Assembly (NCBI RefSeq): GCF_004010195.1 | Contig: NC_057719.1 | Span: 19,813,189 to 19,863,338, forward strand | DNA: 50,150 nt | Source of the DNA: Chiloscyllium plagiosum | Lineage: Eukaryota | Direction: 5' to 3' | Shown here: one piece after another, positions 2,741 through 47,197 of the stretch | How the letters are laid out: each line of letters starts with the position of its first letter | Position numbering within the stretch: position 1 is the stretch's first letter | Translations under genes and position numbers: made by a program | Notes under the pieces: model-generated | What the model saw: the letters and a program-made list of their open reading frames with translations, nothing else | Databases searched by the model: none | Told to the model about the DNA's origin: nothing

Positions 2741-3033
2741 TCATAACAAATCTTTGAGGACCAATAGAACAACAAGTCACTCCCTGCCTCAGAGTTCAAA
2801 TCCAACTCCAGAACTTGATAACTGAGGAAAGCATATCCATAACAACAGGTTGGACAACAATTTACGGTACTGTCCAACATAGATTATTTTCAAAACTTGT
2901 TCATGGGTTGGGGCACTGCTAATTAAACCAGCATTTATTGCCCATCGCAGATTCCTACTTCAATTGATTGGTTTGGAACAGCTATTTCAGAGAGAAGATA
3001 CAAGTCAGCTGTATTGCTGTGGGTCTGGAGTCA

Positions 3034-4176
3034 TCATGAAGCTAGTGGACCTGTGCCTCACCACCCACTTCACCTTCAACAACATAATCTACAAACAAAC
3101 CAACGGCACACCCATGGGATCTCTGCTATCAGGATTCATAGCAGAAGCAGTAATGAAAAGACTAGAACAAACAGCCCTGCCAATCATCAAACCAAAAGTC
3201 TGGGTCCGCTACGTAGATGACACCTTTGTCATCACAAAACAAAACAAGATAGAAGAGACATTTAACATCATCAACAACACCCTCACCGGCATAACGTTCA
3301 CCAAGGTGGAAGAAACCGACAACAAACTCGCATTCCTGGATGTCACAGTCGAAAGAAAGGACAACGGAGAACTACAAACCCGCGTATACAGAAAACCGAC
3401 AAACACTGACCAAATACTTAACTACACCAGCAATCATCCCAACACACAGAAATGAAGCGGTATCAGAACACTATTCCAATGAGCCACCACACACTGCAGC
3501 ACAGACGAACTTCAGAAAACAGAGGAGAACCACCTATACAACATATTTGAGAAGAAAGGATACTCAAAAAATACAGTCCGCAGATTCCCCAAGAACAAAC
3601 CACAATGAGCAGACCAAACGCAGCCAGAAACCCTAACCACCTTACCATACATCAAAGAAGTTTCAGAAATGACAGCCAGACTACTAAGACCCCTCGGAAT
3701 CCTAGTAGCACACAAACCCACCAACACTCTCAAACAAAAACTAACAAACTTCAAAGACCCAGTACAACCCATGGACAAAACCAACGTCATCTACAAAATT
3801 CCATGCCACAAACACTACGTAGGACAAATAGGAAGAAAGTTAGCCACCTGGATACACGAACACCAGCTAGCCACAAAAAGACACGACCCTCTCTCCCTCG
3901 TAGCCCTACACACGGATGAAAAAAACCACCAATTCGACTGGGACAACGCATCTATCCTGGGACAAGCTAAGAAAAGACATGCCAGAGAATTCCTAGAGGC
4001 CTGGCACTCCAACTACAACGCAATAAACAAATACATAGATCTAGATACCATCTATCAACTCCTCAGAAAACGAACAAGAAATGACATCACCACAAACCCC
4101 AGGAATCCCATCCAGGACAAACACATAAATAGAAAGCAGGAGACAACAGGTTCGCTTCACTTGGACGTCGCCACTG
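3034..4176 (+). mobile_element. Penelope-like element (Penelope/Poseidon-type), 5'-truncated: RT plus GIY-YIG, disrupted
   Basis: GTPMGS...WVRYVDDTFVI...FLDVTV...VYRKPT (RT) and NVIYKIPC..YVGQ.GR..IHEHQ..REFLEAWH (GIY-YIG); in-frame stops. Confidence 0.93.
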
Positions 4177-13395: not shown

Positions 13396-16294
13396 CTTAC
13401 TCCTTTTTGAGGTATTTTTGGTGTTGGAGATGATTTCCTCAAATTCCAGGAGAAATAATTATTGTTTACAAGCTGTTGCATTGTTTTCGAACTTTGGGGA
13501 CAAAAAGATCAAAACAACAGCACTTTAAAAAGGAGGAAGAGAGACAAAACCATAGACCACGTGGTCAGTGAGAGAGAGCAAGAAACAAACCTACACTACT
13601 GACTGAAACAACAGTGAGTCTGCACAGCTGCTGCCTTTGCTGTTTGTGTTAAAGTATTTCTGGACATCAGAATGTGTCTAATAAAAATTAACAAACAACG
13701 AAAATCACAGTTCACCTTGGAGGAACCTCTGTGGGATAGGTCACAGCACGGGAGCAGCTATGTACTTGGTTTGTAAGTGTAACCGCACCATTCTTTTTTT
13801 TTGAGTAGAATTGGCTTTTTTAGGTTATATGTTCTATTGAGATCTATCTCTTAATTAAAATTTTAAAATATAAAACATAGGTACTAAGTTAGCCTGGAGC
13901 AGTGATTTTTAGAGCAGTAAGATGGTGCTATTTTCTGGGTCTATACATTGGGATGATCTTCCTATCAGATGTGGGAGATTAGGGACAGTTTCCATGTTAT
14001 TTCCATATTGCCTGCAGGAAGTGTGTTTGCTTGCGAATCCTATCTGATCGCATGGATCAGTTGGAACGACAGATAGAGGCAATGAGGAATTTACATGAGT
14101 GTGATGGATGACATTTATAGGAAGGTAGAAAAACCGCAGATACAGTCAGGTAGATGGGTTACCTTCAGGAAAGATAGGAGAGGGAGGTAGATAGTGCAGG
14201 AGTCTCCTGTGGCTATCCCGGTGTGAAACAAGTACTCTGTTTTGGAAAATATAGGGGGTGATGGACTTGAACAGAAAAGTTTCTGGTACTGAGATTGGCT
14301 CTAATGTAACAAGGGGTATGTCAGGTTCCAAGTGATCGATTGTGAGAGGGGACTCTCTAGTCAGAGACATTTCTGCGGCTCACGGTGAAAAATCAGAATG
14401 GTGTGTTGCCTTCCCGGTGCCAGGATCAAGGATATCTTGGAGACAGTGCAGAATGTTCTCAAAGGGGAGTGGGACCAGCAGGAGGTCATTGTATACACTA
14501 GAACTAACGCCATAGAAGGGGAAAAGAATGAGATTCTAAAGGGTGAATATAGAAAGTTAGGCAGGAATTTAAAAAGGAGGTCCTTGAAGGTAGTTATATC
14601 TGGATTACTCCCGGTGTCACAGCTAGTGAGGTTAAGAATAGAACGATAGAGCAGATGAAAGCATGTCTGAGGAGCTGGTGTGGGGAGAAGCATTCACATT
14701 TTTGGATCATTGGAATTTCTTCTGGGGTAGAAGTGACCTATATAAGGAGAACGGATTGCACCTGAATTGGAAGGGGACTAATATACTGGCAGGGAGATTT
14801 GCCAGAGCTGCTCAGGAGGATTTAAACGAATAAGATAGAGATAGTGAGGAAAGAGATCAGTCTGAGACTGGTACAGTTGGGAAAAGGAGCAAGTCAAACA
14901 GTCAGGGTAGGCAGGAACAAAGCAGGTAATGACAGAGGACTAATAAATTAAACTGCATTTATTTCAATGCAAGAAGCCCCACAGGGAAAGCAGATGAACT
15001 CAGGGCATGGTTAGGAACATGGGACTAGGATACCACAGCAATTACAGAGACGTGGCTCAGGGATGGACAGGACTGGCAGCTTAATGTTCCAGGATACAAA
15101 TGCTATAGGAAGGATAGATAGGGGGCAAGAGAGGAGAGTGAGTGGAGTTTTGTGGTAAGGGACAGTGTTACAGCTGTACCGAGAGAGAATAGTCCTGGGA
15201 AGACATCCAGGGAAGTTATTTGGGTTGAGCTGAGAAAAAGGAAAGAGATGAGCACCTTATTAGGATTTTACTGTGGACACCCCTAATAGTCAGTGGGAAA
15301 TTGAGAAAAAATATTTGTAAGGGGATCTCAGTTATCTGTAAGAATAATAGGGTGGCTATGGTAGGGGATTTTAACTTTCCAAACATAGACTGGAACTGCC
15401 ATATTGTTAAGGGTTTAGTTGGAGGGGAATTTGTTAAATGTGTACAAGACTACTTCTGATAGAGTATGTGGATGTACCTACTAGAGAAGGTGCAAAACTT
15501 GACCTACTCTTGGAAAATAAGGCAAGGTAGTTGACTGAGGTGTCACTAGAGGAGCACTTTGGGACCAGCCACCATAATTTTATTAGATTTAAAATAGTGG
15601 TGGAAAAGAATAGACAGGATCTAAAAGTTGAAGTTCTAAATTGGAGGAAGGCTAATTTTGAAAGTATAAGGCAGGAACTTTCAAAAGTTGATTGGGGGCA
15701 GATATTCACAGGTAAAGGTATGGCTGGAAAATGTGAAGCCTTCAAACATGAGATAATTAGAGTCCATAGAACGTAGAACATAGAACATTACAGTGCAGTA
15801 CAGGCCCTTCGGCCCTCGATATTGCGCCGACCTGCCATACCAACCTGAAGCCCGTCTAACCTACACTATTCCATGTACGTCCATATGCTTGTCCAATGAT
15901 TACTTAAATGTACTTAAAGTTGGCGAATCTACTACCGTTGCAGGCAAAGCATTCCATACCCTTACTACTCTCTGAGTAAAGAAACTACCTCTGACATCTG
16001 TCCTATATCTATCACCCCTCAATTTAAAACTATGCCCCCTTGTGCTTGCCGTCACCATTCTTGGAAAAAGGCTCTCCCTGTCCACCCTATCTAACCCTCT
16101 GATTATCTTATATGTCTCTATTAAGTCACCTCTCAACCTTCTTCTCTCTAACAAAAACAGCCTCAAGTCCCTCAGCCTTTCCTTGTAAGACCTTCCCTCC
16201 AGACCAGGGCAACATCCTAGTAAATCTCCTCTGCACCCTTTCCAAAGCTTCACATCCTTCTTATAATGCGGTGACCAGAACTGTACACAATACT

Positions 16295-17214
16295 NNNNNN
16301 NNNNNNNNNNNNNNNNNNNNNNNNNNNNNNNNNNNNNNNNNNNNNNNNNNNNNNNNNNNNNNNNNNNNNNNNNNNNNNNNNNNNNNNNNNNNNNNNNNNN
16401 NNNNNNNNNNNNNNNNNNNNNNNNNNNNNNNNNNNNNNNNNNNNNNNNNNNNNNNNNNNNNNNNNNNNNNNNNNNNNNNNNNNNNNNNNNNNNNNNNNNN
16501 NNNNNNNNNNNNNNNNNNNNNNNNNNNNNNNNNNNNNNNNNNNNNNNNNNNNNNNNNNNNNNNNNNNNNNNNNNNNNNNNNNNNNNNNNNNNNNNNNNNN
16601 NNNNNNNNNNNNNNNNNNNNNNNNNNNNNNNNNNNNNNNNNNNNNNNNNNNNNNNNNNNNNNNNNNNNNNNNNNNNNNNNNNNNNNNNNNNNNNNNNNNN
16701 NNNNNNNNNNNNNNNNNNNNNNNNNNNNNNNNNNNNNNNNNNNNNNNNNNNNNNNNNNNNNNNNNNNNNNNNNNNNNNNNNNNNNNNNNNNNNNNNNNNN
16801 NNNNNNNNNNNNNNNNNNNNNNNNNNNNNNNNNNNNNNNNNNNNNNNNNNNNNNNNNNNNNNNNNNNNNNNNNNNNNNNNNNNNNNNNNNNNNNNNNNNN
16901 NNNNNNNNNNNNNNNNNNNNNNNNNNNNNNNNNNNNNNNNNNNNNNNNNNNNNNNNNNNNNNNNNNNNNNNNNNNNNNNNNNNNNNNNNNNNNNNNNNNN
17001 NNNNNNNNNNNNNNNNNNNNNNNNNNNNNNNNNNNNNNNNNNNNNNNNNNNNNNNNNNNNNNNNNNNNNNNNNNNNNNNNNNNNNNNNNNNNNNNNNNNN
17101 NNNNNNNNNNNNNNNNNNNNNNNNNNNNNNNNNNNNNNNNNNNNNNNNNNNNNNNNNNNNNNNNNNNNNNNNNNNNNNNNNNNNNNNNNNNNNNNNNNNN
17201 NNNNNNNNNNNNNN
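16295..17214. other. Assembly gap (N run)
   Basis: 920 Ns inside a CR1. Confidence 1.
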
Positions 17215-28110: not shown

Positions 28111-28804
28111 TTATTAGAATTACTTCATTAACATTTATTTAAAATTACTTCTGGCTGGAGCAATTGCAAGTTTGACTGAGACAAAATAAAATATTTAAAA
28201 ATGCAAAGCCACTCAGTCTGGTGTGGAGAGAACTAACAAATCTCCTATGTGTTGGCAATAGGGTGCAAAAAGACAAATTCTCTACAATATCCAAATTCAC
28301 TGAAGTCCACTATTGTTAGGAAGACATTTTAAAAATGATTGTCCTGAAAAGATTCACCTGAAAGGACCTCTTGAAAATATTAGCTGGAATTAATATTGCA
28401 AGGAAGATTGTGAGAGCTTTTGGCACATGGCTGACTTGGAAACTGTTGTCTGCACTTCCCTCTTTCTCTCTCTAAGTGAACCTGGCTCAGTTCTCATGTA
28501 AACAATCAGAGAAAAAGTAGCTGGAGGTGAGAACTTTAAATAATTCCTTCTGCTGACTGAATTCAGAAAACTCACTAACTAACCTTAGTTCTAAGTTAAA
28601 ACCCTTCTAAGACACCCACACGACTTCAAATGGTATTTTCTTTAAATATCTTCTGAGATGGATACTAATCTCTTTTATTTGTGTGTGTGTTGTGTAACTG
28701 CTCAAAAACCACATTCTTGATGCATGTCAGGATTATTTTTCTCAGGGCTGATAATGTGTTGCTGGAAAAGCGCAGCAGGTCAGGCAGCATCCAGGGAACA
28801 GGAG

Positions 28805-28840
28805 AATCGACGTTTCGGGCATAAGCCCTTCTTCAGGATT
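28805..28840 (-). ncRNA. Minimal type I hammerhead ribozyme motif
   Basis: AAUC CUGAAGA A GGGC-UUAU-GCCC GAA ACGU C GAUU; stem I AAUC/GAUU perfect. Confidence 0.8.
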
Positions 28841-28873
28841 CCTGAAGAAGGGCTTATGCCCGAAACGTCGATT
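28838..28873 (+). ncRNA. Minimal type I hammerhead ribozyme motif
   Basis: AUUC CUGAAGA A GGGC-UUAU-GCCC GAA ACGU C GAUU; predicted cut after 28869. Confidence 0.78.
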
Positions 28874-29469
28874 CTCCTGTTCCCTGGATGCTGCCTGACC
28901 TGCTGCGCTTTTCCAGCAACACATTTTCAGCTCTGATCTCCAGCATCTGCAGACCTCACTTTCTCCTCCTTATTTTTCTCAGGGTTAATCGGCAATAGCC
29001 TTGTTTTTTAATTTAAGAAACCTCATGATTAGCTGTTTATTGCCAATAATGAAAATAGATAACTATCTTAGGATTTGAAGGAAGTCTAGTCTTATGCTAA
29101 AAGAGAACTAAACATCTATGCGATCAACTGCGGAGATTTGGATAATTCTTTTCTCATCAGGTTATATCTGTGTATAGATACATTTTTCATGGTAAATTAT
29201 TCTCCACTAACTGAGAGGCCCCTACATCCAAAAAGTATAATCTTTATATTTCATTTTCATAAATGGTGATCTATGGTCACTGTAGGTGTTATTGCTGAGG
29301 AACTTGACTTTACTTTCCAACCCTTCGTCCTCTCTTGTGAACCGCTGGTGTGTTGTGTGCTTTGCCTCTAGCAGGGTATTGTAGCTGATATGTCAGTGCT
29401 TATGCCAGCTCCCATTGCACAAAACAAGACATGTTATGTGGTTCTGACAGATTCAATGAATGTTTATAT

Positions 29470-34369: not shown

Positions 34370-34812
34370 GAATCAGTCTAAACATTATGGCGCACACAGG
34401 GGGCTAACACCTTCAATGTATTATCTGGGCTGACACCAATTGCTGAAAAATGTGTTGCTGGAAAAGTGCAGCAGGTCAGGCAGCATCCAAGGAGCAGGAG
34501 AATTGACGTTTCGGGCATAAGCCGACACCAATTGTTAAAGTTCACTTGAGAATGTAACTTAGAAAAAAAGTTTTGCAATTTACATATGAAAGAAGTGAAA
34601 CTAACATGGTCATTCTAACAGATGAGAGACTTAACAAACAAGGTATTTTTCAATGTATAATTTCTGTTACATCATAATGTAAACTTTTGCGATAAATGCT
34701 GTGTCTTACAATCGTGTACTCCACAACCACCTGATGAAGGAGCAGCGCTCCAAAAGCTAGTGCTTCCAAATAAGCCTGTTGGACTATAACCTGGTGTTGT
34801 GTGATTTTTAAC
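34370..34812 (+). mobile_element. PLE 3' region (second family) with core-mutated hammerhead
   Basis: CAC CUGAUGA A GGAGC-AGC-GCUCC AAA AGCU A GUG at 34728-34762 (G12 is A); ends GTGATTTTTAAC like 18051-18136; absent from the paralog at ~41175. Confidence 0.75.
34443..34523 (-). mobile_element. Single-arm PLE end (same family as the palindromes) nested in another PLE
   Basis: Matches 44310-44389; TSD GACACCAATTG at 34432-34442 and 34524-34534. Confidence 0.88.
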
Positions 34813-44272: not shown

Positions 44273-44497
44273 TAGGAGAAAGTGAGGACTGCAGAGCTGG
44301 AGATCAGAGCTGAAAAATGTGTTGCTGGAAAAGCGCAGCAGGTCAGGCAGCATCCAAGGAGCAGGAGAATCGACGTTTTGGGCATAAGCTCTTCTTCAGA
44401 ATGATTCCTGAAGAAGGGCTTATGCCCGAAACGTCGATTCTCCTGCTCCTTGGATGCTGCCTGACCTGCTGCGCTTTTCCAGCAACACATTTTTCAG
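44273..44497. mobile_element. Second palindromic PLE-derived mini-element (opposite orientation)
   Basis: Arms ~44310-44399 and ~44408-44497 plus tail 44273-44309; TSD CTAATCAAC 44264-44272 / 44504-44512 (15 bp with 2 mismatches: 44258-44272 / 44498-44512). Confidence 0.92.
44404..44439 (+). ncRNA. Minimal type I hammerhead ribozyme motif
   Basis: Identical to 28838-28873; the mirror copy on minus has G12 changed to A and a stem II substitution. Confidence 0.78.
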
Positions 44498-45039
44498 CTC
44501 TCCCTAATCAACCCATCTTTATCCATGTAAGTACTAAGCACATCATACACTCATTGGTAAACTGGAATATTTGTTTTGCTAAGTAGGTTAATGATGCTAA
44601 AGTTGTCAGTCTCATCATGAAACAATCTAAAGCATTTCTATTTAAAAACAGAGGATTTGATTAATCCCATACACAACAATTAAGTTAAAGTACATATTTT
44701 TATTACGGCTCACATTTTTCTGGCAATTTGGCATCTTTATATCTGAACAGAAGGGAAGACAATGACGGGCATATAAAGCAAACAAAGGGTTGTAATAATC
44801 AGGACTTGAATTCTCAAGGTCCACAATACTGAAAGGTTCCTTACTCGCAAATGAAGAAATATTCTGACCTCAAGCAAAGTAAGGTTGGTATCCATACTTA
44901 CTGGCCCATGACATTCAATCCATCAGAAGTCTCAACATTAAAGGAAATAGGGAATAAATAGATTAGGTGTTACTTTGTTGTTTCAGATTTTTCAATTGAA
45001 CAGAAGACTTAAACAACAACAAATGGCACTGTTGTATTA

Positions 45040-46419: not shown

Positions 46420-47159
46420 AACCAACCCAACCTCCACTCCCGGCACCTTCCCTTGCAACCGCAGGAGGTGCAACACTTGCGCCCACACCTCCCCCCTCAC
46501 TTCTCTCCAAGGCCCCAAAGGAAACTTCCATATCCGCCACAGATTCACCTGCACCTCCACCCACATTATCTACTGCATCCGCTGCAGCCGGTGTGGCCTC
46601 CTCTATATTGGGGAGACAGGCCGCCTACTTGCGGAGCGATTCAGAGAGCACCTCTGGGCCACCCGGACGAACCAACCCAATCACCCTGTAGCACAGCATT
46701 TCAACTCCCCCTCCCACTCCACCGAGGATATGCAGGTCATTGGACTCATCCACCGCCAAACCACAACAACGCGACGGTCGGAGGAGGAGCGTCTTATCTT
46801 CCGACTGGGAACCCTCCAACCACAGGGGATGAACTTGGACTTCACCAGTTTCTTCATCCCCCCTCCCCCCACCTTGTCTCAGCCGAATCCCTCCAGCCCG
46901 GCACCGCCTTCCTGACCTGCAGTCTTCTTCTTGACCTCTCCGCCTCCACCCTACTCCGACCTATCACCTTCACCTTGACCTCTTTCCACCTATCACATTT
47001 CCAACGCCCCTCCTCCAAGTCCCTCCTCCCTACCTTTTATCTTCTCCTGCTGAACACTCTCTGCTCATTCCTGAAGAAGGGCATGTGCCCGAAACGTCGA
47101 ATCTTCTGTTCCCTAGATGCTGCCTGACCTGCTGTGCTGTTCCAGCAATAAAGTTTCAG
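46420..47159 (+). mobile_element. Neptune-type PLE, 5'-truncated: open Zn-finger plus GIY-YIG frame and 3' repeat
   Basis: Frame from 46442: GTFPCNRRRCNTCAH..IIYCIRCSRCGLLYIGETGR..RFREH..VAQHF..EERLIFRLGTLQPQGMN; possible TSD CCTTTTC 46413-46419 / 47160-47166. Confidence 0.93.
47067..47102 (+). ncRNA. Minimal type I hammerhead ribozyme motif, all elements intact
   Basis: AUUC CUGAAGA A GGGC-AUGU-GCCC GAA ACGU C GAAU; stem I AUUC/GAAU; predicted cut after 47098. Confidence 0.85.
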
Positions 47160-47197
47160 CCTTTTCTTTCCCAAGCCCTTCAATCCTTTGATGTTTT

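Follow-up and report, generated by a model that had tools for sequence, protein, structure and literature searches.

A gene-less head-to-head insert in the Chiloscyllium plagiosum genome is likely a by-product of Penelope-like element priming from both cut strands

The window analysed here, a stretch of 50,150 nucleotides (nt) of the Chiloscyllium plagiosum genome (NC_057719.1; 19,813,189–19,863,338), contains a 222-bp insert at 28748–28969 between identical 15-bp repeats. These repeats form a target site duplication, with the left copy at 28733–28747 and the matching right copy at 28970–28984 on the plus strand, and their length lies within the family mode of 14–16 bp. Around the centre base, 28839, arms of 91 nt (28748–28838 and 28840–28930) make up a 183-nt palindrome in which 28752/28926 is the sole differing pair. 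The palindrome is far from a chance arrangement (fold z = −26, matched by none of 200 shuffled sequences); a repeat finder stretches its arms to 97 nt at 98%, because the last bases of the target resemble the element. Numbering the element from the A at 28838 (+1), the short, tail-less arm (28748–28838, minus strand) is an inverted copy of about +93 to +3 with one mismatch to the other arm, and the long arm (28838–28969, plus strand) runs from the initiator-like A at +1 to +132. The long arm includes a 39-nt extension at 28931–28969 (plus strand), the tail of a Penelope-like element (PLE), which would span the roughly 38–39 nt between two putative reverse-transcription start sites. The centre junction (28837–28841) is of the commonest type in the genome. 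Open reading frames (ORFs) touching the insert and its flanks encode only 20–70 amino acids. Duplication, palindrome, one-sided extension and absence of coding sequence had all been described in the original prediction, and each holds at these coordinates.

The original prediction also matched the insert to the 3′ end of a PLE that encodes a GIY-YIG endonuclease. The arm is indeed 89% identical over 92 nt to 47069–47160, the 3′ end of a 5′-truncated coding fragment (46421–47160, plus strand) that comprises a linker with a CX4CXXC motif, the GIY-YIG endonuclease, a pseudo-LTR and a tail-less arm, but this copy belongs to a different subfamily and is therefore a relative of the insert, not its parent. 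A second head-to-head pair of the same family lies in the window at 44274–44501, with its tail on the left and a different centre. A solo tail-less arm starting at about +14 (34442–34523) sits between direct repeats of about 13 bp, and an older, diverged PLE-like family, which has the conserved 3′ half of the arm and the tail in common with this one, was seen at 828–860 and at many sampled places.

Among 16 loci with long ORFs, an ORF with RT and GIY-YIG domains precedes the arm in 14; that of locus L079 matches RVT_1 (1.2e-8) and GIY-YIG. Locus L031 preserves a natural tandem in the order truncated 3′ end, arm, tail and ATG, with the ORF starting at about +167. Because the arm follows the ORF and the tandem reads arm–tail–ORF, the arm is both the 3′ end of the element and the leader of the next unit; the long arm of the insert corresponds to both. 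The partial tandem upstream of the ORF that defines a pseudo-LTR is present in L031. The protein from the window fragment carries the CX4CXXC motif before the endonuclease, and a CX2-5CxxC linker motif in this position is a mark of the Neptune/Nematis clades; judged by this motif, the parent appears to be a Neptune-type PLE. No complete full-length parent was found among the 16 long-ORF loci or among 30 loci recovered with a 5′ ORF probe. With an RT/GIY-YIG parent, an inverted 5′-truncated copy, a tail at one end and a target duplication, the insert has the parts of an EN+ PLE insertion unit. In L031 (1560–1575), and also in the left arm of L101, the tail ends in a pyrimidine tract plus AG just before the ORF leader, resembling a splice acceptor; no clear donor was seen upstream.

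Each strand of the insert carries a candidate minimal type I hammerhead, called from the core consensus and the stems. On the plus strand the motif spans 28838–28873, with the core at 28842–28848, stem II at 28850–28861, a zero-loop palindromic stem III at 28865–28868 and stem I formed by 28838–28841 with 28870–28873 (one U–U); the predicted cut falls after 28869. The mirror motif on the minus strand (28805–28840) has a fully paired stem I of 4 bp, better than the native U–U form owing to the junction, and a predicted cut after 28809. As far as sequence motifs can tell, the proposal of a minimal hammerhead on both strands is borne out: the motif appears complete on each, and its plus-strand core begins two bases to the right of the centre, at 28842. 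An Rfam search (E ≤ 5) returned weak hairpin matches and no hammerhead. The core is kept in 37 of 47 relatives, 23 of which also keep the palindromic stem III, and stem II is 94% and stem I 71% paired across relatives, with weak covariation.

Folding models predict that the two copies silence each other. Predicted stem II formation is 0.96 in a single arm versus 5e-15 in the palindrome transcript, which is predicted to fold into a hairpin of −203 kcal/mol that masks the leader's own structure. This accords with the earlier suggestion that a hairpin of about 90 bp would form and the ribozyme fold be lost. A dimeric ribozyme was not the lowest-energy form in cofolding, and a consensus fold used to look for a conserved leader–tail stem left one 5-bp hairpin with no covariation. 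RNA reads from the family map to both strands, and 93% of them continue into unlike sequence, which suggests passive read-through. The hammerheads are probably inert passengers.

Short Penelope-like stubs without genes, such as this insert, number in the tens of thousands in this genome. The exact 29-nt centre of the insert has 1,380 matches across 3.56 Gb (reversed control, 0), or 17% of the 7,898 matches to near centres with arms at most 30 nt apart; an asymmetric-pair pattern has 6,139. An unselected sample, made up of five stretches picked arbitrarily (1.05 Mb, of which 1.02 Mb is not N), contains 180 arms. Head-to-head pairs in it number 35, a density of about 34 per Mb that extrapolates to about 120,000 pairs (~10^5) in the genome. 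A targeted set comprises 47 palindromes, 16 of them picked for the commonest centre; L094 was left out of the tally of duplications and outer ends, L008, L101 and L104 out of that of tail side and 5′ reach, and six short-armed loci out of the comparison of subfamilies and arm differences. Arm boundaries were tallied against a panel, since all-against-all comparison is confounded by palindromes matching one another. Eight DNA-like sequencing runs from the same organism contain 68–80% of the locus words. Tabulated over the sampled and targeted copies, the features that had been proposed as a check show an axis that clusters, duplications of mostly 14–16 bp and arms that differ less within copies than between them (3.2 versus 6.2).

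An exact duplication of at least 12 bp (mode 15) flanks 35 of the 47 targeted palindromes, the other 12 having no clear duplication. Where the duplication is clear, 29 of 35 long arms stop at +128 to +131, and 23 of 35 short arms stop at +92 to +95. A tail is found on exactly one arm in 33 of the 35 unselected pairs (two have none, and none has two) and on 48 of 106 unpaired arms in that sample. By analogy, the one-tail pattern matches the use of two start sites on opposite strands, as occurs in vitro for the Poseidon element. Where the short arm ends, target and RNA agree at 3.1 of 6 bases, versus 1.7 when permuted (n = 22); the way in which duplications were delimited biases this test upwards, so the result is suggestive that partial target–RNA pairing helps the second cDNA to start.

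The duplications bear on a trivial origin, in which the palindromes are an assembly artefact or the result of a later deletion that collapsed two neighbouring inverted insertions. One locus of the 47, L104, could be read in this way: its arms both carry tails and come from two subfamilies, its centre is a perfect AT, we found no duplication around it, and either two RNAs or a later fusion may lie behind it. Such a trivial origin is scarcely credible for the insert, however, given the duplications around 35 of 47 palindromes, arms that have aged independently (differing at 12.8% of CpG sites versus 2.5% elsewhere) and contigs from the RNA run that carry opposite-strand joints in this region.

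In contrast to the clean outer ends, the centres are scarred. The targeted palindromes have 28 different centres and 24 carry filler; 11 of the 17 fillers of at least 5 nt hold at least 5 nt copied from within 40 nt. Filler copied from nearby is the pattern of polymerase-theta end joining. Four subfamilies share the commonest centre, while most others are unique (47 loci), which indicates that palindromes are rebuilt at each insertion and not inherited from one master. The second alternative of the original prediction, a self-propagating, MITE-like family in which a master palindrome is transcribed and retrotransposed whole by PLE protein, would explain why 1,380 copies share one exact centre and why family copies yield RNA from both strands. 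It fares badly against the spread of that centre over four subfamilies, its modest share of near-centre matches, the heterogeneity of the remaining centres and a predicted transcript hairpin that hides the leader structure. We consider it highly improbable as the origin of the insert, although a minority of palindromes may have been re-mobilised. Identity as a MITE itself was rejected on the one-sided tail, variable centres, 14–16-bp duplications and retroelement parent.

A second route to a palindrome is fold-back self-priming, proposed for PLE palindromic junctions (PMC3846280), in which a single cDNA begun at the tail would fold its 3′ end back on itself and serve as template for the other arm. 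Some asymmetric centres fit the small loop that this would leave, and both arms of a copy usually carry the same subfamily marks: over 64 nt, arms differ at 3.2 positions within a copy and at 6.2 between copies, and in one distinct subfamily all 7 of its pairs are concordant. Discordance between arms is in excess at +43 (6 of 41, p = 5e-4), and one pair combines two subfamilies. A fold-back copy cannot hold sequence that its template lacks, yet 13 of 35 unselected pairs have a tail-less arm that extends 4 nt or more beyond the other on the 5′ side, against 11 in which the tailed arm does so and 9 that are level; in the targeted set the tail-less arm reaches further in 17 of 44. About four boundary calls in this tally are alignment artefacts; clear cases include +3 versus +32 and a tail-less arm at −32 versus +23. 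Fold-back is contradicted for such copies. Nor does it account for clean outer ends with scarred centres, or for the central A of the commonest centre, which lies on the strand of the tail-less arm in 9 of 15 copies and of the tailed arm in 6 of 15, as expected of a mismatch repaired either way. Fold-back could have produced a minority of copies but is a very unlikely source of the insert. The one-tail pairs, the duplications, the 5′ reach and the varied centres instead support the first alternative of the original prediction, a recurrent product of two priming events; a pair of independently primed cDNAs accommodates every case.

What sets the axis can be read from the 5′ ends of the arms. 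Of 118 arms that reach +5, 58 stop between −4 and +5, at 0.055 per nt versus 0.0019 upstream (about 29-fold), and 20 of these 58 have no inverted partner. The axis is thus ribozyme-proximal, as the original prediction held, but with the predicted cut 32 nt further downstream, it is not set by cleavage. Cleavage was considered as the axis and rejected: the cut site (+32/+33) shows a weak bump, with about 5 of the 100 listed asymmetric centres ending nearby (by eye). The excess of arm ends there is weak (9 versus 47, p = 0.05) and may leave cleavage a minor role.

The RNA start probably sets the axis. An initiator-like motif surrounds the +1 A in 36 of 47 relatives, a match that is cheap on this pyrimidine-rich strand (5–8 per 398 nt) and overlaps stem I, and the Penelope internal promoter with its initiator sits in the pseudo-LTR (PMC2377424). 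A hand count of the 100 listed copies in which −2 is already foreign gives, for the base at −1, C in 43, G in 30, T in 15 and A in 12. G is not native at this position and is in excess, at 30 of 57 non-C cases (p = 2e-5); C is commoner than G, so the ends are mixed. An extra G marks capped full-length L1 insertions (PMC2837659, PMC11702581). A single-copy cap test covered 25 of 30 loci, in which most junctions were filled. The RNA evidence consists of 2,580 reads mapped from one of two raw RNA runs, the other yielding none. Reads from dispersed copies have boundaries at +1, +85/+90 and +130/+131; no pile-up of RNA starts was seen in the single run that mapped, and the transcription start at +1 is therefore one that we infer.

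Dual priming might also operate with a 5′ edge set by a protein or structure stop, or by an endonuclease nick at the ATT of +1 to +3. The Poseidon enzyme favours ATT within its own pseudo-LTR (PMC11167929), ATT lies exactly at the edge, and ends at −1 and −2 are frequent, which together with the lack of an RNA-start pile-up speaks for such an edge. We nevertheless think it unlikely, because a cap fits both the excess of non-native G at −1 and the finding that five-base centres outnumber perfect AT centres (9 versus 2 of 49 places, hand count), and PLE initiator promoters sit in the pseudo-LTR (PMC2377424).

Several features of the copies are observed directly: their anatomy, the parent family, one tail per pair, a 14–16-bp duplication, clustered 5′ ends and scarred centres. 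With these in hand, we consider it probable that the insert consists of gene-less, head-to-head leader copies of about 92 and 130 bases that were primed from both cut strands, and that it is a dead-end by-product. Transcription from a pseudo-LTR promoter would begin at the initiator-like A immediately 5′ to hammerhead stem I and yield a capped RNA. The element's protein would bind the leader and nick both target strands about 15 bp apart, and each target 3′ end would prime a cDNA, one at about +130 and the other, aided by partial pairing with the RNA, at about +92; the short arm would be the cDNA primed from the left target end at this inner start site. If the start sites nearest the RNA 5′ end were used, both cDNAs would run off that end, and host microhomology-mediated end joining could fuse their 3′ ends, frequently adding filler copied from nearby. 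If the cap templated a C, the cDNA end would become an interrupted five-base palindrome and so give the commonest centre, in which the two cDNA ends would have annealed over five bases with a central A–A mismatch. Experimental precedent comes from another PLE clade: in vitro, Poseidon nicks and extends both strands, and two internal start sites bound its tail (PMC11167929). More broadly, we lean towards the view that two-strand, two-start priming is the normal insertion mode of EN+ PLEs and that the palindromes are twin strong-stop cDNAs of capped RNA, fused through host end joining. At loci L087 (4564–4740), L090 (4695–4778) and L084 (3469–3595), an inverted short arm lies upstream of a long coding copy, as in published PLE units; these loci likely reflect the same mechanism with one long cDNA.

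The type of insert is already known. Head-to-head PLE insertion units with an inverted pseudo-LTR, a tail and a target duplication have been described (Arkhipova et al. 2013, PMC3846280; Craig et al. 2021, PMC8557442), and the insert shares with them the 5′-truncated head-to-head copy, the palindromic junction, the 30–40-bp tail at one end, the duplication and the GIY-YIG parent. Unlike those units, both copies here are stubs of about 90–130 nt without an ORF, number ~10^5 by extrapolation and have their 5′ ends at one position. The copy statistics here favour dual priming and contradict the self-priming reading proposed in 2013 (PMC3846280). In the literature searched on PLEs, twin priming and the cap G, which lay outside subscription papers, Repbase and Dfam, we found no such shark palindromes, no PLE dual priming and no copy statistics favouring it over self-priming.

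Likenesses to other systems are partial. As with green anole Poseidon in vitro (Frangieh et al. 2024, PMC11167929), both strands appear nicked and extended, two starts bound the tail and the template RNA appears uncleaved; the parent here differs in its linker cysteine motif and in an ORF that starts at about +167, past the tail, and not inside the ribozyme. The main text of the Poseidon study does not describe palindromic products or their joining. LINE-1 twin or dual priming (PMC2837659, PMC11702581) likewise primes from both ends, keeps the duplication, end-joins the inner junction and adds a G at full-length 5′ ends. In the accounts given there, L1 twin priming copies adjacent, nearly non-overlapping RNA parts as a minority outcome, whereas here the same stretch would be copied from two fixed starts. 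The hammerheads resemble those of PLE pseudo-LTRs (Cervera and de la Pena 2014, PMC4209133) in the type I core, the bulge before stem II, the zero-loop palindromic stem III and the dimer type. That report includes opposite-strand hammerhead pairs 100–700 bp apart in Schistosoma; the motifs show no difference from ours, except that mutual silencing is predicted for the two copies in the insert. Non-LTR retrozymes (bioRxiv 10.64898/2026.07.22.740005) are also non-coding, PLE-derived and hammerhead-bearing, but form head-to-tail tandem repeats, whereas the insert is head to head and shows no sign of unit-length processing at the cut site. Identity as a retrozyme was rejected on this orientation and on ends at +1 rather than at the cut.

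The origin of tandem and inverted PLE structures has been stated to be open (PMC8557442). The minimal copies described here are numerous enough to separate the models, contradicting fold-back and matching the two-strand, two-start chemistry seen in vitro, and three predictions follow from them: an RNA start, nicks spaced about 15 bp apart and dependence on end-joining repair. They are probably by-products that record how PLEs insert, not a new self-spreading element. If dual priming is the normal route, the ~10^5 fossils would map where transcription begins, the two reverse-transcription start sites and the distance between nicks, and a single mechanism would account for inverted pseudo-LTRs, one-sided tails and solo stubs. 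The palindromes are also a large potential source of double-stranded RNA of about 90 bp in host transcripts.

Some copies have other surroundings. In L036 (1100–4800), four arm copies and one palindrome lie inside a short-period satellite and were apparently amplified together. The window bin at 16001–17000, with a GC fraction of 0.13, is probably a gap or simple repeat. In the L117 region (2900–3600; sample C5, 117000–117630), two near-identical short palindromes lie inverted about 600 bp apart, reflecting either a duplication or a feature of the assembly.
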